IMG/VR virus record: IMGVR_UViG_3300000517_000001
Strand: one strand, 5' to 3'
Source of the DNA: a virus
Taxonomy: Duplodnaviria; Heunggongvirae; Uroviricota; Caudoviricetes
DNA length: 38,245 nucleotides
In this document: one piece after another, positions 1 to 9,603 of the stretch
Position numbering within the stretch: position 1 is the first letter of the stretch
Layout: each line of letters opens with the position of its first letter
Notes under the pieces: model-generated
The model's database searches: none
The model's input: the letters and a program-made list of their open reading frames with translations, nothing else
What the model was told of the DNA's origin: nothing
Made by a program: the position numbers and the translations under genes

Positions 1-741
1 TTGCATCCAAGGGCACATCCAAACTTTAAGCCCAATCTTACGAACATTGTAAGAAAACATATAGTCTTCAGATAGGTAGCGACGAGTTTCTGGATCAATA
101 ATAGTATCAAAGAATGCAGTGATTTCTCGTGTACCGTCAAAGTGTTCAGTACGAGCATGATCTGGCTTATAGCTTAATTCGGGGAATGCTTTAGCATACT
201 TATCAAACACCGAACGCTTGATCATCATAAACCCAGTACCGCCTTCACGGATTTCTACAGGTTCATCAAGCTTAAACGACTTAATGTTTTTTGCAGGATT
301 AAAGACAAAGTCGCCAACAAAATGTTCGAGCTGAAAAGGATTATCTTCACCATAGCCTTGATTAGCTGCAGCCTTTACCTTTTCCCAAGCAATCGTCTTC
401 TTAGGATAAGGACCAGTAATAACGTCATAATCATTTTCCTCATCACAGAGATGAAGAAGCGCAAGGACATCTTTGTAGTTAAAACCAATATCAGAATCGA
501 TAAACATCAAGTGTGTAAAACCCGAACGAAGGAATTCATCAACACAATAGTTACGAGCGCGAGTAATTAGACTCTCATTAAAAAGATAATAGAATCGTAC
601 TTCAATACCATGCTGAGCACAGACCATCGCAAGATCATTTGTTGCTTTGGTATACATGCCGGCACATTGTCCGCCGTACATTGGTGTAGCAATAAAGAGC
701 TTCTTTTTTCGTAGCTCTTCTACATTTAATTCAATTTTCAT
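1..741 (-). CDS. GT-A fold glycosyltransferase-like protein (3' end beyond window; missing from ORF track)
   Basis: Manual translation from ATG at 741 (TAATG overlap with the upstream stop) is open to the window edge: MKIELNVEELRKKKLFIATPMYGGQCAG...SLITRARN...THLMFIDSDIGF...GTGFMMIKRSVF...YLSEDYMF. It has a DxD motif (FIDSD) and the GT2-like SEDY motif. Confidence 0.75.
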   Translation of the reverse strand, partial: MKIELNVEELRKKKLFIATPMYGGQCAGMYTKATNDLAMVCAQHGIEVRFYYLFNESLITRARNYCVDEFLRSGFTHLMFIDSDIGFNYKDVLALLHLCDEENDYDVITGPYPKKTIAWEKVKAAANQGYGEDNPFQLEHFVGDFVFNPAKNIKSFKLDEPVEIREGGTGFMMIKRSVFDKYAKAFPELSYKPDHARTEHFDGTREITAFFDTIIDPETRRYLSEDYMFSYNVRKIGLKVWMCPWMQ

Positions 742-1028
742 TATACATTATTCTCCATATCATGTACATAAAGCTGCAGTATAGCATAATGCAATACTTT
801 CATCAAATCTTTACGTGCTTCTGCTGGACCACCCTTTTTACCATATCTATTTGAATACTTATCGACATTACCCATACAAAAACCAGTCCCATGGCCCCGG
901 TCAATAATCACTTCGGTTGATTGAATTTTACCTGTTGCGTAATGTTGATCGTAAGTTTTATCAATATAGTCTCGAAGTTCATCAATGTAAATATCTTCAT
1001 TGAATTTATAATCAATATAGTCTTTCAT
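741..1028 (-). CDS. DUF3310 / T7 gp1.7-like (SaV-like) putative nucleotide kinase
   Basis: QHYATGKIQSTEVI...FCMGNVDKYSNRYGKK...KDLMKVLHYA fits the HY..GN..KY..R...K..DL.K...Y pattern. The start is probably ATG 1028 (MKDYI), which has a GGAGAG SD, rather than 1106. Confidence 0.65.
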   Translation of the reverse strand: MKDYIDYKFNEDIYIDELRDYIDKTYDQHYATGKIQSTEVIIDRGHGTGFCMGNVDKYSNRYGKKGGPAEARKDLMKVLHYAILQLYVHDMENNV

Positions 1029-1044
1029 TATCTCTCCACTTGTT

Positions 1045-2235
1045 TCAAGAAAAAAATCCTTCCAATGTATTACTACGTTCATTATATTCAGCAGTTTGAT
1101 TACCATTATACTGCATTATAAAGTCAGTGTCAACCATTACTAACTCATTATTCAAATATTTTTTCACCTCTGTGGCCATATCAGTGGCTGTTTGGACTGG
1201 AACGTTTTGACAAATATGATTCACTGTTGTAGTGTTTGCTTTTACAAGCTCAAAATCATCAGGCATACCCATAATTGTAAGAGCCTCTCGGAAATCAATA
1301 TAACGATCTTCTGTAGGATGTGTAAGCATAAAGGGATACCTTCCCACAAATGCACCAATCTTGTCCTTTGGAACAATGGTGTGTCTTCTTGTTATTTCAT
1401 TTCCTGCTTTAAGTTTTTCATATCGACGTTCACAGCGTTCAACTTCTTCATTATAACCTTTTTCTTTCATCCATTCAGCTACTTCAAGGTAATTACGATG
1501 CTGTTCAATATAAGCCAACGCATCAGAATTACGAGCTGAACGAGGTGGTACCATCTCTGAGAATTCCCTATGAGAAATGCCCTCGTGAATATTTTCGAGA
1601 ATGTACCTATAGTAGGGATCGTCACGAGATGGTACATTTTTATTTATCAACTTTCTCATTGAATTTGAGGAAATATTTGAAATTAATTCCTCAATCGGTA
1701 TATAAGGTGTTTTGTAATAAGAAAGAAGTGGTGTCTTACTATCTTTCCAAAAGAAGTAAAATGCTCTTTCACGAATTTGTGGATTGCCATGTAATTCACT
1801 TTTGGTTCTATACACAGACATCGTATAACCATGTTCAGAACCAATACGCTTCATTTCATTTAGGATTGGTTCTCCCATTTTACCGGCAAGTCCTGGAGCA
1901 TTCTCACCCCATAACACACGTGGCTTCAATGATTTAAGAACATAAGCTGTAGTCTTGATAAGCCAGTCATTAGTAATGTTGTCAGAACCAGCATCTTTTG
2001 ATAGACGAGAAAGACCTGCACATGGGCATGTCGAGCAAATAACATCAACATAACCCAAATCCGGAACACCTTTACCTAATTGATAATACGGAACGTCTCC
2101 ATAATATTCTACAAGATGTTGATCATTGTCTTGAAAATCTGAATAGGACAGCAAATACTCAGGCTTACTACCAAAAGCTTTTTGCTGTCCTAAAACAAGA
2201 CCACCGATTAAGGGAACGATGGCTGCATGATTCAT
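1045..2235 (-). CDS. C5-cytosine DNA methyltransferase-fold protein with atypical motif I
   Basis: Motif IV (STCPCAGLS), VI (ENAPGL), VIII (QIRERAFY), IX (RYIDFREALTIMGMPDDF) and X (ICQNVPV) are present. Motif I reads IVPLIGG instead of FxGxGG. Confidence 0.8.
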   Translation of the reverse strand: MNHAAIVPLIGGLVLGQQKAFGSKPEYLLSYSDFQDNDQHLVEYYGDVPYYQLGKGVPDLGYVDVICSTCPCAGLSRLSKDAGSDNITNDWLIKTTAYVLKSLKPRVLWGENAPGLAGKMGEPILNEMKRIGSEHGYTMSVYRTKSELHGNPQIRERAFYFFWKDSKTPLLSYYKTPYIPIEELISNISSNSMRKLINKNVPSRDDPYYRYILENIHEGISHREFSEMVPPRSARNSDALAYIEQHRNYLEVAEWMKEKGYNEEVERCERRYEKLKAGNEITRRHTIVPKDKIGAFVGRYPFMLTHPTEDRYIDFREALTIMGMPDDFELVKANTTTVNHICQNVPVQTATDMATEVKKYLNNELVMVDTDFIMQYNGNQTAEYNERSNTLEGFFS

Positions 2236-3242
2236 GTCATAAACCTTAGTGCTGTTTTCATTGCCGAGTTAATAGCCATGTCCATATCCAAATAAGCATA
2301 AAGACCACATCTTCCAATGAAAGTAGTATTCTCAGTAGGAATAGAACGATACTTAGCATAAAGATCACGATTTACACCATCTTTATCTTTCACTGGATAA
2401 TAACGTTCCATATCATTATCGCGGTAATCGCATGGCTCTTCGTATGTAAGAACAGTCATTTTTTCGTTAATGCCATGTCCTGGAATATTTTTCCATTCAG
2501 TAACTCTTGTATAAGGACCGGTATGAGTGAAGTTAACAGTAGTAGTTGGTAGTACTTTAGCCATTGGCAGCGTCACATTATGGAATCGAATAGAACGGTA
2601 TGGCAGTTCACCATACTTTTTACCATGATACACATCAATTGGCATTGAGTTGAATACGTGGTTATAATGGGATTCCATATCCTTTTTGAATTGAACCTCG
2701 AGCATCACTTTAATATTCGGATGATCGAGCATATTCTCTACAAGGTGCGTATATCCACCAAATGGCATTGCTTGAAAGTTATCATTCGGAAAATAATACT
2801 CGTTGTCATCATCGCGAATAGGAACTCGATTTACAATATCAGGATTGAGTTCGTCAAGACTCATACCCCACATTTTTTTAGTGTATGGCCTAAAGAAAAT
2901 ATCGAGAACATTCTCTTCACCAACGATCTCTTTAGTTTCGCGATTTACAGGCAAAGTGACATAACGGCCATCTTTAAGCTGAGCCTTTACTTTATGCTTA
3001 TAAGGAAGCCACGCAGTAAAACGAGAAAGAAAGTCAACTACCTCCTGGTTATTTGTATGAAAAAGATGAGGGCCATACTGGTGAATTCGAATACCGTTTT
3101 CATCTAGATAGTCATATGCATTACCAGCAACATGATCACGACGATCAATCACATGCACATTTCTTCCATTGTCAGCGAGCATACGAGCAATTGTGGCGCC
3201 AGAAAATCCAGCGCCTATTACGAGAATATCATTTTCTGGCAT
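2232..3242 (-). CDS. glf: UDP-galactopyranose mutase
   Basis: FAD motif VIGAGFSG, plus AGNAYD, HQYGPHLFHT, YTKKMWG, RVPIR, YYFPNDNFQAMP, TRVTEWK, RYYP and GRCGLYAYLDMD. Confidence 0.93.
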   Translation of the reverse strand: MPENDILVIGAGFSGATIARMLADNGRNVHVIDRRDHVAGNAYDYLDENGIRIHQYGPHLFHTNNQEVVDFLSRFTAWLPYKHKVKAQLKDGRYVTLPVNRETKEIVGEENVLDIFFRPYTKKMWGMSLDELNPDIVNRVPIRDDDNEYYFPNDNFQAMPFGGYTHLVENMLDHPNIKVMLEVQFKKDMESHYNHVFNSMPIDVYHGKKYGELPYRSIRFHNVTLPMAKVLPTTTVNFTHTGPYTRVTEWKNIPGHGINEKMTVLTYEEPCDYRDNDMERYYPVKDKDGVNRDLYAKYRSIPTENTTFIGRCGLYAYLDMDMAINSAMKTALRFMT

Positions 3243-4335
3243 TGAGAATAGCCTCCAATTCTTTTTGTGTCACATTCTTATCAAGAGGATGATTATCATA
3301 CAAGCAATCATGCTGATCTTTTGCTGTTTGAATGAGTTGTTCAAGTGTCATTTCTTCTACTTGTGCGGCAGTAAGACCAACATATGCATCACCATATACC
3401 TTACCTTCAGCGTCATCACAAATAAGAATAGAACCAACATCTGCAACCTGAAGTGGACGAGCTCTCCACCAACCAGAACCAGCGTGGTGGTAGCCAGGCA
3501 TCAAGCAACCCCATTGCTTTTCATAAACACGACACATGTCATATTCTTTAAGACGCTCGCTTTTGTAGTCATCATTTTTGCCAGCATTCTTTTGGCCGAA
3601 GTAATCAATCTCCCATTTCCAATCATCATTCTGATCTTTCAACCAACGACGAGTACGGCGATGGAGAAGTGATGCAAAGTTCCACTTACGCTGTTTTTCT
3701 TCAGGAGATACAGTCTCAGTGAAAAGCTTTACAGTACCATCTTCAAAGTTGTTATCAGGTCTACGATTCAAATGATATGGGTTTGGATTAAAGGTAAAGA
3801 GTTTATCCTTTTGCCAGCCAAGATCCATAAGATCGAGATCACCACCAGCAAATGCAGAAACAAGAAGACGATTGTTTCGATTTTCTACAATAGTACATCC
3901 ATCAATATAGTCTTGTGCATGTGCTTTAATAGTCTCTTCGCTTTCAGATCCGCCGTAATGGTCAAAAAGATACTTACGAAAAGGCTTGTTGTCTTCAATA
4001 ATAGACTCTTTGTACTTAACAATACTATCAATCATGCCTTTGAATTGCCAGTCGTCAAATGCAAGAATACAGTCAGGACGCTGAGCAATAGTCCAAAGAC
4101 CAGACCAAATACGAGCTGCAAATGATTGAAGGTTATGAATGTATACAATGACTTCATCATAACCAGAAAGGTCTTCGCCAATTGTTACAGGACGTTGATC
4201 TACTTCCCAGCCCATATCTTCAAGACATCGAATAAGACCATAATGACTCGGAACAACCTGAAGTTGCTGACGAAGATAAAAGTCGCGTTGTGTTTGTGCT
4301 TGGTTAATACCAGTAATTAGAATTCGTTTACTCAT
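3229..4335 (-). CDS. T4 beta-glucosyltransferase-like GT-B DNA glycosyltransferase
   Basis: N-terminal VVPSHYGL...EDMGWEVDQ...GYDEVIV and C-terminal RARPLQVADVGSILICD...QHDCL parallel the T4 Bgt sequence as I recall it (VPSSE...EMGLNVDI...DYDRLIV; LRVWETMASDAVMLID...QHDIL). The start is probably ATG 4335 (MSKRIL), with a GGAG SD and an ATGA overlap with galE. Confidence 0.62.
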   Translation of the reverse strand: MSKRILITGINQAQTQRDFYLRQQLQVVPSHYGLIRCLEDMGWEVDQRPVTIGEDLSGYDEVIVYIHNLQSFAARIWSGLWTIAQRPDCILAFDDWQFKGMIDSIVKYKESIIEDNKPFRKYLFDHYGGSESEETIKAHAQDYIDGCTIVENRNNRLLVSAFAGGDLDLMDLGWQKDKLFTFNPNPYHLNRRPDNNFEDGTVKLFTETVSPEEKQRKWNFASLLHRRTRRWLKDQNDDWKWEIDYFGQKNAGKNDDYKSERLKEYDMCRVYEKQWGCLMPGYHHAGSGWWRARPLQVADVGSILICDDAEGKVYGDAYVGLTAAQVEEMTLEQLIQTAKDQHDCLYDNHPLDKNVTQKELEAILNARK

Positions 4336-5198
4336 TTTTTCTCCATAGAATATGCGCTGCGACACATATCGCCTAACGTATGATTAATACTAACATATTT
4401 GCTTAAATTGTCAACTACTAACTTTGCAGGATCGCCTGACCTTCTTTCACCAAAGTTCACATCAAAGTCAATTCCAGTTACTCGCTTCATTGTATTTACA
4501 ACCTCAAGGTTAGAATATCCTGCACCTGATCCAATGCACTCGTATGGTGTGTTGGACGGAGTATTTATACAACTTAAAAGTGACTCAGCAAGATCAACCA
4601 CATGGACATAATCACGAATGCAGGTTCCATCAGGAGTATCGTAGTCATCACCGAAGATTGTTATAGAGTCTCTTTGACCAGCAGCAGTGAGAGCAGCAAT
4701 ATGCATTAAATGTGAAGGATCACAAATTTGTCTAAACTCTCCGTTGTTCCCTGCTACGTTAAAGAAACGAAAGATTGTATAGTCATTTGCAATTTGCTTT
4801 ACTGCTTCTTCGGCAATAATTTTCGACTTGGCATACGGAGAGATTGGATCAAATGCACCACCAGTAGAAGCAAAAACGAAGTGACCATATTTTACATTTT
4901 GCAGGAGATTGATTGTTCCTTGTACGTTCGTCTCATAATAGCTATTTGGTTTCTCAACAGATTCAGCAACAGAGATAAGAGCTGCACAATGGATTACCAC
5001 ATCATAATACTGATCTATCCAAAAGATTTCATCTTTTTTACGGATATCAATATTATAGAATTTTGTGATATATTTGTAGATGCTGTTTTTAGAGTGTTCA
5101 ATATCTAGGCCATGAACATTATGACCAGCTTCATATGCAGCCTTTACAATATGAGAGCCAATATAACCACATGCACCTGTTATGAGGATTTTAGCCAT
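4332..5198 (-). CDS. galE: UDP-glucose 4-epimerase-like extended SDR
   Basis: ITGACGYIGSH NAD motif, HCAALISVAESVEKPNSYYETNVQGT, catalytic YAKSK, FRFFNVAG, IFGDDYDTPDGTCIRDYVHVVDLA and RRSGDP. Confidence 0.88.
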   Translation of the reverse strand: MAKILITGACGYIGSHIVKAAYEAGHNVHGLDIEHSKNSIYKYITKFYNIDIRKKDEIFWIDQYYDVVIHCAALISVAESVEKPNSYYETNVQGTINLLQNVKYGHFVFASTGGAFDPISPYAKSKIIAEEAVKQIANDYTIFRFFNVAGNNGEFRQICDPSHLMHIAALTAAGQRDSITIFGDDYDTPDGTCIRDYVHVVDLAESLLSCINTPSNTPYECIGSGAGYSNLEVVNTMKRVTGIDFDVNFGERRSGDPAKLVVDNLSKYVSINHTLGDMCRSAYSMEKK

Positions 5199-5542
5199 TC
5201 TTTACATTCCTTTAATTTGTTCATTTCAAATTCCTTATCATTCAGCTGTCTATTCAGCGGAGATGGGTGTGGCATCATAAAATGCTCGATCCCAGCTGTA
5301 TTTAGTGTTTTTGAAACGAAGCCACCGAGAGCTATTACTTTGTCATAACCCTCGGTGAAAGAATTTAAAATGTTGTAGTCTATCATATCAGACTTGTATG
5401 GACCTGGTGTATGAATAATATTTGTGAATGAAAAGTGTTGAGCATTAAAATAATCTACCCATCGATTTAGACGTTTGATTGTTCCACTTACTCGCTTGGG
5501 ATTACCCTGAGATGGGTTGATCCCCACAATCAATAAATTCAT
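5180..5542 (-). CDS. Miniature uracil-DNA glycosylase superfamily protein (MUG/SMUG-like motifs)
   Basis: Motif A-like IVGINPS, central FTN, VIALG and motif B PHPSPLN. The start is probably ATG 5542, which has a GGAG SD. Confidence 0.7.
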   Translation of the reverse strand: MNLLIVGINPSQGNPKRVSGTIKRLNRWVDYFNAQHFSFTNIIHTPGPYKSDMIDYNILNSFTEGYDKVIALGGFVSKTLNTAGIEHFMMPHPSPLNRQLNDKEFEMNKLKECKEWLKSS

Positions 5543-5984
5543 ATTCAACTCCAGCTTCAAGAAACATGGTTTTAGACAATTTAAATGACTCAGCCCACTG
5601 TTCAGGATAGTTTTTCTTTGGCATGACTACTCGCCTGATACCAACTTGAATTACACCCTTTGCACATTCAGAGCAACAAGGAAGACCCCAAATATAAAGG
5701 GTAGAGCCATCGAGAGAAACACCGTTATATGTAGCATTATATATTGCATTCATTTCGGCGTGAACAATTAATTTATATTTTTTCTCTTTATATTCGTACC
5801 TTACTTGCCGATCAATAATACCACGCGGAAATCCATTATAGCCTTGGGAAAGAACTTGACCTTTATTTCCAATTGCCACTGCACCAATCTTCGAAGAAGG
5901 ATCTTTAGACCAGCTCGATACTTCTCGAGCCAGTCCAAGATAACGAATATCCCATTTATTTGACAAGATGAAAGTGCCTTTCAT
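5502..5984 (-). CDS. cd: dCMP deaminase
   Basis: SKDPSSKIGAV, GYNGFPRG, zinc motifs HAEMNAI and PCCSECAK. The start is uncertain (ATG 5984 or TTG 5966). Confidence 0.9.
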   Translation of the reverse strand: MKGTFILSNKWDIRYLGLAREVSSWSKDPSSKIGAVAIGNKGQVLSQGYNGFPRGIIDRQVRYEYKEKKYKLIVHAEMNAIYNATYNGVSLDGSTLYIWGLPCCSECAKGVIQVGIRRVVMPKKNYPEQWAESFKLSKTMFLEAGVEYEFIDCGDQPISG

Positions 5985-6621
5985 ACACGTGGAGTGATCC
6001 TGCACTCCAGTAAATATCACCCTTTTGATATCCAGTCTCATCTGCTACCATACCGAGAACATAATCCTGCCATGCTCGATCGTTTTTGTAACCAAAAATT
6101 GCATCATTGCTGCGCATTTGAACGATAGCATTGACTTGCCCATCACGCTGGAGATACTGTACAGTGTTAGTACACATAAAGTCAGATCGACCATTCTTAT
6201 TATAATCAACCTGCATTTCAGGACGAGTATAGATCATGATAGCACGACGAGTATCTGGATCATTTTTGAGTGCTTCGACGCACTTTGAATATTGATTACC
6301 ATTTTCAGGTGAAAAAATACACCAACCGTAGTTAGAGTTAATAAAGCCATCTTTATCAGCAACGGTCATCCAAATCTGTGGTGGATTAGTTTCTTGTTTC
6401 ACACCACCTGGCATATCATATACATTCAAAGAGCAAGACTCATACCATGCGATTTCACGTTCTACATAGTCCCAGTTTACTTTACCAAAGATTGCTGGTT
6501 CATCTGCAATGAAGGTACCACCCATAATTTCAAGTGTATTCACACCGGTTTTGTCTGTAACATATTCATTGTTACAAAGCTTGCGAATAAACTCTTTACG
6601 AATATCGCTTACTCTCATCAT
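5956..6621 (-). CDS. gp42: dCMP hydroxymethylase (thymidylate synthase fold, T4 gp42-like)
   Basis: EREIAWY, INSNYGW, DTRRAIMIY, catalytic DFMCTN, MRSNDAIFGYKND and GSLHVYERHF. The residue 8 after the RSxD aspartate is Asp (the cytosine-selective type), not the Asn of ThyA. Confidence 0.88.
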   Translation of the reverse strand: MMRVSDIRKEFIRKLCNNEYVTDKTGVNTLEIMGGTFIADEPAIFGKVNWDYVEREIAWYESCSLNVYDMPGGVKQETNPPQIWMTVADKDGFINSNYGWCIFSPENGNQYSKCVEALKNDPDTRRAIMIYTRPEMQVDYNKNGRSDFMCTNTVQYLQRDGQVNAIVQMRSNDAIFGYKNDRAWQDYVLGMVADETGYQKGDIYWSAGSLHVYERHFHLVK

Positions 6622-6907: not shown

Positions 6908-7360
6908 TTATCCTTTCGTTATTTGGTTAGTGAGACTAATGATTTCATTGGATATTATTTTATCAACATCACAAATTGGAGTGAGATGTCTTAGTTCATA
7001 GCTTCTCACTTGTTTATTTTTAAAATTTAAAATGCGATATCGATTATCAATACACATAAAGAGTTGACATACTTTCTCTTTGCGAAAATAATCATATTTT
7101 TTATGAGGCACAGCAATGAAGAAAATATAATCAACATTATCAAGCTTAAGCCATTGACTTTCTTCCATCCAAAGGCTTTGTGTTTTAGCTATGAATGTAG
7201 TGGTTTTTACCTCATATTTATGAGGACCGATCATACCATCTTTTTCTGAGTCATACTTATATGTACTTCTCACTGCATATGGAAATTTCTCGGCTACTAC
7301 ACATTCACCAAGCTCGCCGATCCGTTCTTTAATATCATCATATGTAAGATTAGAAATCAT
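6908..7360 (-). CDS. PD-(D/E)xK restriction-endonuclease-fold protein
   Basis: GELGE helix, KDG and YEVKT arrangement of candidate catalytic residues. Confidence 0.55.
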   Translation of the reverse strand: MISNLTYDDIKERIGELGECVVAEKFPYAVRSTYKYDSEKDGMIGPHKYEVKTTTFIAKTQSLWMEESQWLKLDNVDYIFFIAVPHKKYDYFRKEKVCQLFMCIDNRYRILNFKNKQVRSYELRHLTPICDVDKIISNEIISLTNQITKG

Positions 7361-7392
7361 ACGTTGCTCCTATAGATGTAATTTTAATTGTG

Positions 7393-7968
7393 TTAAGAGA
7401 CATAATTCCACTCTATATTGTTTTCATTTTTGCAATAATTGCGAATAGTTTGTGTTGTTACATTTAAAGCTTTTGCGGCTTCTTTTGGACTATTATATAC
7501 TATATCTCTGAATTGTACACAATTAGCTTTGCGGCCACGCTTTGGTGTATGAGGAACAAGTTCAATTTTGCATATACTGTATGCATCTTCCATAACATAA
7601 TTATCTGCACGCTGGAGCGGAATAAGCTTTTTGTTTTCTTCATTAGTTACATAATGAATTTTACAAGCGTCAAGTAATAATTCTAAAATAGTGTCAAAGG
7701 ATCGATTTTCAATTACAGCCTCAACAATTTTTTCTGCCATACGCTGTCGAGGATTATAGTGTTCTGGTGTCATATTACTTATACGACCGTTATGCTTTTT
7801 AATGGCGGCCTTTGATGCATAACCAGTCCATATGGTCTTTAAATCAAAAATAAGATTGCGCAAAGAGTTAATTGTGATAAGCTTATGACTTTCGTCATGA
7901 AGATGTTCTTTTTGATTTATTACCCAGCGTACCACACCTTCATAATCTTTGCGATTAATAGAAGCCAT
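7393..7968 (-). CDS. Putative His-Me finger (HNH-like) nuclease with C-terminal NUMOD1-like HTH
   Basis: TPEHYNPR...VTNEENKKL, and C-terminal YNSPKEAAKALNVTTQTIRNYC. Confidence 0.45.
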   Translation of the reverse strand: MASINRKDYEGVVRWVINQKEHLHDESHKLITINSLRNLIFDLKTIWTGYASKAAIKKHNGRISNMTPEHYNPRQRMAEKIVEAVIENRSFDTILELLLDACKIHYVTNEENKKLIPLQRADNYVMEDAYSICKIELVPHTPKRGRKANCVQFRDIVYNSPKEAAKALNVTTQTIRNYCKNENNIEWNYVS

Positions 7969-7979
7969 TGTATTTTTCC

Positions 7980-8225
7980 TTAGCGACGATTGTAAACATA
8001 AACGTCAGCAGTAGTAGCATATTTCAAAGGAAGCGACTGATTGTACCGGCGATTACCCATACGGTGGCCACGACCTTGCAACTTAACGTAGTTTGTTTCG
8101 CCGTATTTTTCATTGCACATTTTAACATATGTACGAAGTACGCGAACTGCAGTAGCGCCTTCACCAATAGGATGGCCGTCTTTCATGTCAACAGTGAAGT
8201 AATAAGCGTCAGTGCGTTGTGTCAT
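7980..8225 (-). CDS. Small early hypothetical protein
   Basis: 81-aa ORF with a GGAG SD directly downstream of a consensus sigma70 promoter. Confidence 0.75.
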   Translation of the reverse strand: MTQRTDAYYFTVDMKDGHPIGEGATAVRVLRTYVKMCNEKYGETNYVKLQGRGHRMGNRRYNQSLPLKYATTADVYVYNRR

Positions 8226-8767: not shown

Positions 8768-9187
8768 TTATTCTAAAATTTTTGGTAGATCACCATGATT
8801 ATCATCATGACGAGGTGGCTGCCATCCAGAAGGCTTAATCATATCAGGCATACCCCAAGGGTTTGGACGGCCAGGTTTAACACCAACATCTTTACTCATA
8901 TTAGCCCGAAGAATTTCATCCCATGCTTTATGAGCATCAACACCCATCACATCAAGTGTACCAATAGCAAAGACACAAATATCGATAAGACCGTCTACTA
9001 CTTCTTCAGAGTTTTGTTGCACGTTTGCTGCTGAGATAATCTCACCAAGTTCTTCATACATCATAGTAATACGGAAGCTCAAATACTTACGCATCAACTC
9101 TTTATTGTCTTTGTTCTTTTCGAACCATTCATGTACACCAAACTTTTGGTGCATTTCATTAATATCTTGAGCCCAGTCATTACTCAT
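8768..9187 (-). CDS. MazG-like nucleoside triphosphate pyrophosphohydrolase (PRA-PH/DR2231 type)
   Basis: EELGE...EEVVDGLID acidic motif, WDEILRANMSK and IKPSGWQPP. Confidence 0.8.
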   Translation of the reverse strand: MSNDWAQDINEMHQKFGVHEWFEKNKDNKELMRKYLSFRITMMYEELGEIISAANVQQNSEEVVDGLIDICVFAIGTLDVMGVDAHKAWDEILRANMSKDVGVKPGRPNPWGMPDMIKPSGWQPPRHDDNHGDLPKILE

Positions 9188-9603
9188 TTTTCATTTTCCC
9201 TTTCATGAACTAATTTACGAAGACCACTGCTTGAAAAGCGATGATCACGTTTGTTGAAGTAAAGTTGAATGCCACGTTTACGACATACATCTTTGCCAGT
9301 AAAATCTTTGTCTTTATACTCTACACCGAGTATCCTTACATTTATATCATACATTTGAAGAATGTCAACTAAATCTTCTTCAGTTACATAACAAATAATC
9401 TCATCAACATACTTTACTGCGGCGAGCTGTGTATACCTCTCGACCAATGTTTGAACTGGTGCGTTCTTTTCAGGACGATCAATTGAAGGATCAACCTGAA
9501 GACCAGCAATAAGATAGTCACATTGTTGCTTTGATTCTCTAAGCATACTTATATGGCCTGCGTGAAGTAGATCAAATGTGCTACACGTAAATCCTACTTT
9601 CAT
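9184..9603 (-). CDS. Cytidylyltransferase (glycerol-3-phosphate cytidylyltransferase, TagD-like)
   Basis: STFDLLHAGH (HxGH), LIAGLQVDP, ERYTQL, VDEI and FSSSGLR. Confidence 0.85.
   Translation of the reverse strand: MKVGFTCSTFDLLHAGHISMLRESKQQCDYLIAGLQVDPSIDRPEKNAPVQTLVERYTQLAAVKYVDEIICYVTEEDLVDILQMYDINVRILGVEYKDKDFTGKDVCRKRGIQLYFNKRDHRFSSSGLRKLVHERENEK

Follow-up and report, generated by a model that had tools for sequence, protein, structure and literature searches.

A predicted 5-hydroxymethylcytosine galactofuranosyltransferase, a remote relative of T4 beta-glucosyltransferase, in a T4-like phage

The beta-glucosyltransferase of phage T4 (BGT; CAZy family GT63) is represented here by the structures PDB 1J39, 1NZD, 1QKJ and 1C3J and by the Pfam family PF09198; its catalytic base is Asp100 (D100A structures, 1NZD). 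The bacterial galactofuranosyltransferases GlfT1, GlfT2 and WbbI have the GT-A fold. In phage MT/5mYOX clusters, BGT-like GT-B enzymes of families GT53, GT66 and GT94 glycosylate 5-hydroxymethylcytosine (5hmC or hmC), some of them needing a partner sugar-nucleotide epimerase (Pyle et al. 2023, 10.1101/2023.12.21.572611), and glycosyltransferases have also been described from TET clusters (Burke et al. 2021, PMC8256090). For the Rhizobium phage RL38J1 and other Pootjesviridae, a UDP-galactopyranose mutase (Glf) has been proposed to supply UDP-galactofuranose (UDP-Galf) for galactose on 5-hydroxycytosine, and the 5-hydroxycytosine systems (RB69, DLP3, RL38J1) have a thymidylate synthase (TS) homolog with Asn at the position of ThyA D169 (D169N) (Lee et al. 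2026, PMC13326640). Here we analyze a gene for a 368-residue protein, hereafter the transferase, on a 38,245-nucleotide stretch of viral DNA (the window; IMG/VR record IMGVR_UViG_3300000517_000001). The window belongs to an IMG/VR fragment of 40 kb that covers about 22% of the genome of a T4-like phage.

We consider it probable, with moderate confidence, that the transferase attaches galactofuranose (Galf) to 5hmC of the phage DNA and is a BGT-related, inverting GT-B enzyme. In the mechanism that we infer, the transferase would be an inverting GT-B glycosyltransferase of common descent with T4 BGT. Judging from homology, a gp42 homolog would make 5-hydroxymethyl-dCMP, from which hm-dCTP would arise with the help of a kinase and a dCTPase, and replication would then put 5hmC into the phage DNA. 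A GalE-like epimerase and Glf, likewise assigned by homology, would convert host UDP-glucose via UDP-galactopyranose into UDP-Galf. The transferase would bind duplex DNA and flip out the 5hmC; Asp95, the counterpart of BGT Asp100, would deprotonate the hydroxymethyl group, which would attack C1 of UDP-alpha-D-Galf with inversion to give beta-galactofuranosyl-5hmC. In place of the BGT loop with Arg191 and Arg195, two arginines, Arg291 (invariant) and Arg293 (near-invariant), would bind the diphosphate. The likely benefit is that the phage DNA would be shielded from host nucleases, against which T4 also uses its sugar coat, and from defences specific for hmC and glucosyl-hmC.

3229..4335, minus strand: GT-B glycosyltransferase, remote T4 BGT homolog, predicted DNA 5hmC galactofuranosyltransferase (PHROG 14998, AlphaFold2 model, Foldseek/VIA-align, hhalign)

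The AlphaFold2 model of the transferase, built on 67 diverse homologs, is confident, with a predicted local distance difference test score (pLDDT) of 93.9 and a predicted template modelling score (pTM) of 0.92. Foldseek against the PDB ranks T4 BGT first (E 8e-8, TM 0.60-0.63), and so does VIA-align on the Foldseek list, where BGT scores Z 17.9 over 305-308 residues at a root-mean-square deviation of 3.7-3.9, followed by glycogen synthase (Z 16.6) and the T4 alpha-glucosyltransferase AGT (Z 16.2). T4 BGT again came first (Z 16.9; T4 AGT, Z 16.0-16.2) in a scan of 48,161 representative chains that was independent of Foldseek. When a viral model library was searched, the first match outside the transferase family was a 351-residue protein, the same length as T4 BGT. 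An earlier, sequence-only reading of this gene had proposed a BGT relative and a structural comparison by which to judge it; for the predicted model this comparison returned a GT-B fold, with T4 BGT and then T4 AGT as the top solved structures, and the best matches were not lipopolysaccharide or capsule transferases.

At the level of single sequences the likeness is faint, with pairwise BLASTP against T4 BGT aligning only the N-terminal VPS..MG.xVD stretch (E 0.041). Profile-profile alignment by hhalign, using 67 members of the transferase family and 32 BGT-family sequences (all PF09198), gave a probability of 92% and an E-value of 6.6e-7 over 308 columns that take in both proteins end to end. 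In this alignment, the sole source of our residue equivalences, D95 (in FDDWQ, 97% conserved) falls on the invariant BGT Asp100, and R293, G247, G281 and Q341 fall on BGT R269, G214, G257 and Q327, respectively. Together with the model, these results support the assignment of the transferase as a remote T4 BGT homolog with a GT-B fold. The likeness that had been proposed from the sequence is real but weak. The strings quoted as BGT-like motifs at the two ends of the protein are all present, namely VVPS (27-30), MGWEVD (41-46), YDEVIV (59-64) and AFDDW (92-96), and in the C-terminal half RPLQ (293-296), SILICD (302-307) and QHD (341-343), and hhalign aligns the same anchors (VPS, MGxxVD, YDxxIV, F-x-D, R, QHD).

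The further claim that the donor site had been re-tooled, based on the predicted donor-region strings WNFASLLHRRT (218-228), YFGQK (245-249) and GCLMPGYHHAGSGWW (276-290), holds in part. The UDP-binding residues G188, R191 and R195 of the BGT phosphate loop (YGGSFRxGxR) align to a non-conserved ASLxxxxxW stretch in the transferase family, and E272 falls on Q296, where the wider family shows no conservation; among these UDP-binding residues and R269, only R269 has a conserved counterpart, in R293. Neither E22 nor the N70-G74 loop of BGT has one. YFGQK, on the other hand, is not divergent, since it aligns with BGT FFGN including the invariant G214, and G257 and R269 are kept as G281 and R293. 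The transferase family has a GSGWWRxR motif of its own, and within the family R291 is 100% conserved and R293 near-invariant.

The frame at 3229-4335 on the minus strand is free of stops over 368 codons, giving 368 residues. Three features mark the ATG at 4335 as the likely start: homologs align from residues 1-4, there is a GGAG 6 nt before the ATG, and the ATG shares an ATGA with the stop codon of the GalE-like gene upstream; a longer variant in the open reading frame list, beginning at a GTG at 4365, is probably not used. Homologs number 690 at E<=1e-3 in a 90%-clustered database and 489 cluster representatives in a 50%-clustered one, and the protein is a full-length match to PHROG 14998, a family of unknown function (E 1.6e-38; residues 4-364 on profile positions 2-357 of 358). 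Sequence searches against Pfam (even at E<=1), NCBIfam, PADLOC and the PDB returned no useful match. A likeness to thymidylate synthase, suggested by the family profile against PDB sequences, was dismissed because the matches were at chance level (E 0.2-0.4).

The T4-like character of the phage is seen in homologs of gp46/47, gp55, helicase, gp23, gp22 and gp20. The transferase lies within a run of same-strand, mostly overlapping genes for nucleotide metabolism, in the order TS-like (gp42), dCMP deaminase, uracil-DNA glycosylase-like (UDG-like), GalE-like, transferase, Glf, C5-methyltransferase-like (C5-MTase-like), DUF3310 and phrog_1574; a MazG-like gene, listed last, lies a little further upstream:

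5956..6621, minus strand: dCMP hydroxymethylase, T4 gp42 homolog (phmmer to T4 gp42 structures, E 3.6e-76)
5502..6041, minus strand: dCMP deaminase (PF00383, E 4.3e-18; phrog_174)
5180..5560, minus strand: small UDG-superfamily protein, 126 residues (PF03167, E 4.6e-6)
4332..5198, minus strand: GalE-like UDP-glucose 4-epimerase, 288 residues (PF01370, E 7.5e-37; TIGR01179 galE, E 1.8e-64, below cut-off)
2232..3242, minus strand: UDP-galactopyranose mutase (Glf), 336 residues (PF03275, E 1.8e-52; TIGR00031, 285.6 bits, just under cut-off)
1045..2235, minus strand: C5-cytosine DNA methyltransferase-like protein, 396 residues (PF00145, E 7.1e-23)
741..1106, minus strand: DUF3310 protein (PF11753, E 9.9e-10; PHROG matches to 'nucleotide kinase' families)
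1..741, minus strand: phrog_1574 protein, function unknown, cut by the window end (phrog_1574, E 1.4e-60)
8768..9187, minus strand: MazG-like nucleotide pyrophosphohydrolase (phrog_671, E 5.9e-23)

For comparison, 80 related IMG/VR loci were fetched, and the counts given here use the 41 that extend 3 kb or more to each side of the transferase. The DUF3310 protein is a candidate component of an hm-dCMP kinase because the DUF3310 domain occurs in phage nucleotide kinases, and the MazG-like pyrophosphohydrolase, present in 29 of the 41 loci, is a candidate dCTPase in the role of gp56. The phrog_1574 protein is a conserved partner, encoded downstream of the module in 38 of the loci. Adjoining the MazG-like gene, at 9184-9603 on the minus strand, is a gene for a 139-residue protein of the cytidylyl/adenylyltransferase family (RfaE domain II-like, glycerol-3-phosphate cytidylyltransferase-like), which could activate another sugar or polyol.

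The gp42 homolog of the window is 54% identical to T4 gp42, and keeps the equivalents of Cys148, Asp179 and Asp171, the last of which is the Asp (in MRSND) at the position of E. coli ThyA D169, as in T4 gp42. Since hydroxymethylase-type residues are kept and a MazG-like gene lies upstream, 5hmC is very probably incorporated into the phage DNA, as in T4. A 5-hydroxycytosine pathway was ruled out by the Asp, rather than Asn, at the D169 position. A gp42 homolog is found in 40 of the 41 related loci, and gp42 identity is 62% for Aeromonas phage 25 and 58% for Erwinia phage FBB1; neither of these two genomes contains a PF09198 BGT, and Aeromonas phage 25 has been noted to have genes 42 and 56 without a known glucosyltransferase (Petrov et al. 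2010, PMC2993671). In cyanophage C48C1, the transferase homolog comes directly after a TET/JBP dioxygenase. The Atlas clusters of the family are 93-100% viral. With the MTase fusions described below, the related loci, the cultured phages and the viral clusters make four independent lines of evidence that point to a C5-modified cytosine in DNA as the acceptor.

It is unlikely, in our estimate, that the base glycosylated is a different one, for example a product of the C5-MTase and UDG partners such as TET-oxidized 5-methylcytosine, or 5-hydroxymethyluracil (5hmU), instead of gp42-derived 5hmC. Such an acceptor would suit the fusions of the family to C5-MTase and UDG domains described below and the MTase-like gene of 38 of the 41 loci. 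It would also suit cyanophage C48C1, in which we found a TET/JBP gene but no gp42 homolog and no Pfam C5-methyltransferase, so that the acceptor in that phage may be 5hmU rather than 5hmC; moreover, 5hmU is believed to be the product of many phage 5mYOX enzymes (10.1101/2023.12.21.572611). The near-universal gp42 linkage argues otherwise, as do Aeromonas phage 25 and FBB1, which have gp42 and the transferase but no C5-MTase. No TET gene was found in the record holding the window, a weak negative that says little, as the record covers only about 22% of the genome and control genomes were also without a match. The C48C1 locus (L001, 5580-9027) holds the TET/JBP dioxygenase, the transferase homolog and Glf in that order, and an isocitrate-lyase-family gene at 172-1413.

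The acceptor could also lie outside DNA altogether, as for the bacterial transferases linked to Glf; it would then be a small molecule, a virion protein or a glycan of the host envelope. The usual task of Glf is in making cell-envelope glycans, and this is probably true of some Glf genes found in records of Streptococcus and Lactobacillus phages; in addition, GT-B enzymes acting on lipids and small molecules reach Z 14-16 against our model. However, the transferase sits inside the nucleotide-metabolism operon of a lytic T4-like phage, its family is linked to gp42 and fused to domains of DNA base-flipping enzymes, and its best structural matches are the T4 DNA glucosyltransferases, which makes a non-DNA acceptor highly improbable in our judgement.

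With 5hmC as the favored acceptor, the gene context points to a furanose donor. The transferase gene sits between GalE and Glf, with reading frames overlapping on both sides; the start of Glf overlaps its 3' end by 14 nt, and every top PDB match of the GalE-like protein is a UDP-glucose 4-epimerase. Glf is present in 24 of the 41 related loci and starts within 45 nt of the transferase end in 22 of these 24, while GalE is present in nine, always together with Glf (9/9). In a phage database, where Glf of any kind occurs in only 85 of 50,697 records, the transferase family occurs in 42 records and Glf in 23 of these same records (cyanophage C48C1, 19 from Aeromonas, two of Stenotrophomonas phage IME13, and Erwinia phage FBB1), adjoining the transferase wherever coordinates were compared. 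We found no literature report linking an Aeromonas phage with Glf.

In a maximum-likelihood tree of the transferase rooted with the Gordonia member, the Glf-linked proteins (C48C1, Aeromonas/Erwinia and the window) form a deep grade, and the Glf-less ones fall into a single derived clade with 23 members, with Providencia in addition. The link therefore appears to be old and to have been lost at least twice, and it is kept across transferases with 28-36% sequence identity. Ten alignment positions separate Glf-linked from Glf-less proteins, five of which (221, 283, 292, 294 and 295) fall within the 26 aligned to the UDP-sugar loops of BGT (hypergeometric p 2.4e-4, for windows chosen after the alignment had been inspected). 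At position 294, which adjoins R293, the Glf-linked proteins have Pro, the three distant ones among them, and the others have Val, Tyr or His. Because there are few independent events and the windows were chosen post hoc, this shift in donor-loop residues is only suggestive.

A C5-MTase-like gene follows the transferase/Glf pair in 38 of the 41 related loci; its product in the window aligns to M.HhaI and keeps the catalytic PC, EN and QxRxR motifs. The 126-residue UDG-like protein combines a MUG/TDG-like GINPS motif with a UNG-like HPSPLN motif and is far shorter than usual UDGs. It is a conserved but optional neighbor (21 of the 41 loci), with no role in the proposed mechanism. Among the best 150 representatives of the transferase family, at least 12 have an N-terminal C5-cytosine MTase domain joined to the transferase, and two of these fusions carry a Pfam UDG domain between the two parts. 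Since the domain order of the fusions differs from the gene order of the window, read-through artefacts are unlikely. For the family as a whole, we tentatively suggest a large, virus-only BGT-like branch that ancestrally put beta-Galf onto 5hmC and worked in a three-part module with C5-MTase-like and UDG-like proteins, joined into one polypeptide in other phages, which would hint at a further step in cytosine hypermodification; this is a possibility that we would place slightly short of an even chance.

The MTase-fused proteins are P0158, P0160, P0167, P0169, P0177, P0180, P0181, P0193, P0200, P0205, P0208, P0226 and P0258; in P0167 and P0169 an intein that contains a LAGLIDADG homing endonuclease splits the MTase domain. 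The 867-residue P0138 is a tandem duplication, with two sets of N- and C-domains of the transferase family in one polypeptide. Related-locus searches with the fusion proteins as queries yielded mostly intein matches or none, and the transferase alone retrieved six viral loci and one metagenome locus. As a model for the pairing of a transferase with a UDG-like protein we considered BapA, a hydrolase of glucosyl-hmC and the partner of the glycosylase Brig3, and ruled it out because its fold is ASCH and not GT-B. In Gordonia phage Phendrix (locus L010, 5923-12499), an actinophage member of the family is accompanied by a MazG-like gene, a C5-methyltransferase and two other genes annotated as glycosyltransferases, which suggests multi-sugar cytosine modification in Gordonia phages. 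Directly after the transferase homolog of Aeromonas phage 25 (locus L002) comes, at 7118-8164, a 348-residue protein without a Pfam match that could be a further modification enzyme.

Several observations count against a 5hmC galactofuranosyltransferase related to BGT and temper our confidence in it. Sugar and acceptor are both predicted from homology and gene context. Other GT-B enzymes score only 1-3 Z units below BGT against the model, and with so small a margin the fold alone establishes only GT-B. The evidence for homology to BGT is structural and comes from profile-profile comparison: the transferase is not matched by PF09198, and a hidden Markov model (HMM) of the transferase family does not retrieve T4 b-gt. 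As a control, PF09198 found T4 b-gt at 1e-99, and it found none in the four homolog-bearing phage genomes searched. As HMM-to-sequence searches fail in both directions, the transferase is a remote BGT relative and not a PF09198 member. The protein is also acidic, with an isoelectric point of 5.4. Furthermore, 5hmC cannot be C5-methylated, and the near-constant C5-MTase-like partner has no role in the proposed model.

As regards the donor, the split between Glf and no Glf reflects only two or three independent events, and Glf is absent from about 40% of close relatives (17 of 41) as well as from the Gordonia, Providencia and Morganella members, so the transferase family as such is not tied to Galf. 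With only 22% of the genome in hand, another transferase could use the UDP-Galf. The Glf-less relatives and the incomplete genome also speak for a BGT-like 5hmC transferase of a pyranose (glucose, or galactose made by GalE), with Glf serving an unseen transferase or a second sugar of a chain; so does the frequent involvement of two or three transferases in making the DNA glycans of phages (PMC13326640; 10.1101/2023.12.21.572611). We nevertheless hold a pyranose donor to be fairly unlikely, because the transferase is translationally coupled to GalE and Glf with no second transferase in the cluster, and because the Glf link persists between distant homologs and the donor-loop residues shift where it is lost.

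If a Galf transfer to 5hmC is correct, it would explain how hmC DNA is protected in gp42-bearing phages without a recognizable glucosyltransferase. This question was left open for Aeromonas phages 25, 31 and 44RR (Petrov et al. 2010, PMC2993671), and in our searches Aeromonas phage 25 carries the transferase/Glf gene pair. A hexose attached to hmC in furanose form would be a new modification of DNA, and a GT-B-fold galactofuranosyltransferase acting on hmC would be new as well; to our knowledge, beta-galactofuranose has never been shown on hmC DNA. Galf-hmC should respond differently to defences specific for glucosyl-hmC, among them Brig-type glycosylases and type IV restriction enzymes, and a transferase that is specific for hmC but differs in its donor pocket could be an orthogonal enzyme for 5hmC labelling. 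The MTase-UDG-transferase fusions offer a way into a partnership in cytosine hypermodification that is still unexplained. The idea is open to direct test in phages of Aeromonas and Erwinia that are in culture.

Compared with T4 BGT, the transferase is similar in its GT-B fold, its size (368 versus 351 residues), its catalytic Asp and its location near gene 42 in a T4-like phage. It differs in having only about 12% identity, in the GSGWWRxR motif that takes over from the phosphate loop, E22, the N70-G74 loop and E272 of BGT, and in its predicted donor, UDP-Galf made by phage genes rather than host UDP-glucose; its family is also larger, with 690 matches compared to 42 for BGT in the same database. 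In Providencia phage PSTRCR_121 (locus L012, 2184-11788), the homolog lies in a block bounded by a divergent TS homolog and by a gene of DNA polymerase size that follows regA and is presumably gp43; this block resembles the T4 gene 43-42-b-gt region and is without Glf. With the enzymes of Pyle et al. and Burke et al., the transferase shares a phage GT-B fold, a weak structural likeness to T4 BGT and an association with C5-MTases, but those systems make 5hmC on DNA by means of an MTase and TET, whereas here gp42 would make it as a nucleotide. The main texts of both papers contain no mention of a mutase or a furanose; MTase fusions were searched for only in Pyle et al. The transferase family may be identical with one of the families in these papers.

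The RL38J1 system is similar in that a phage Glf is proposed to feed galactose onto a C5-oxygenated cytosine in DNA, and different in that the base there is 5-hydroxycytosine made by a D169N enzyme, whereas the window enzyme keeps the Asp. The transferase-family HMM finds no member in Pootjesvirus P10VF, and the RL38J1-type and window transferases therefore appear to be unrelated families. A mutase gene adjoining that of a BGT-like enzyme, or hmC bearing a furanose, is mentioned neither by Lee et al. 2026 nor by Pyle et al. 2023. Finally, the window transferase would share with GlfT1, GlfT2 and WbbI a UDP-Galf donor supplied by Glf and inversion to beta-Galf. Unlike these enzymes, its model is GT-B, as are all of its strong structural matches, and its predicted acceptor is a DNA base rather than a lipid-carried glycan.

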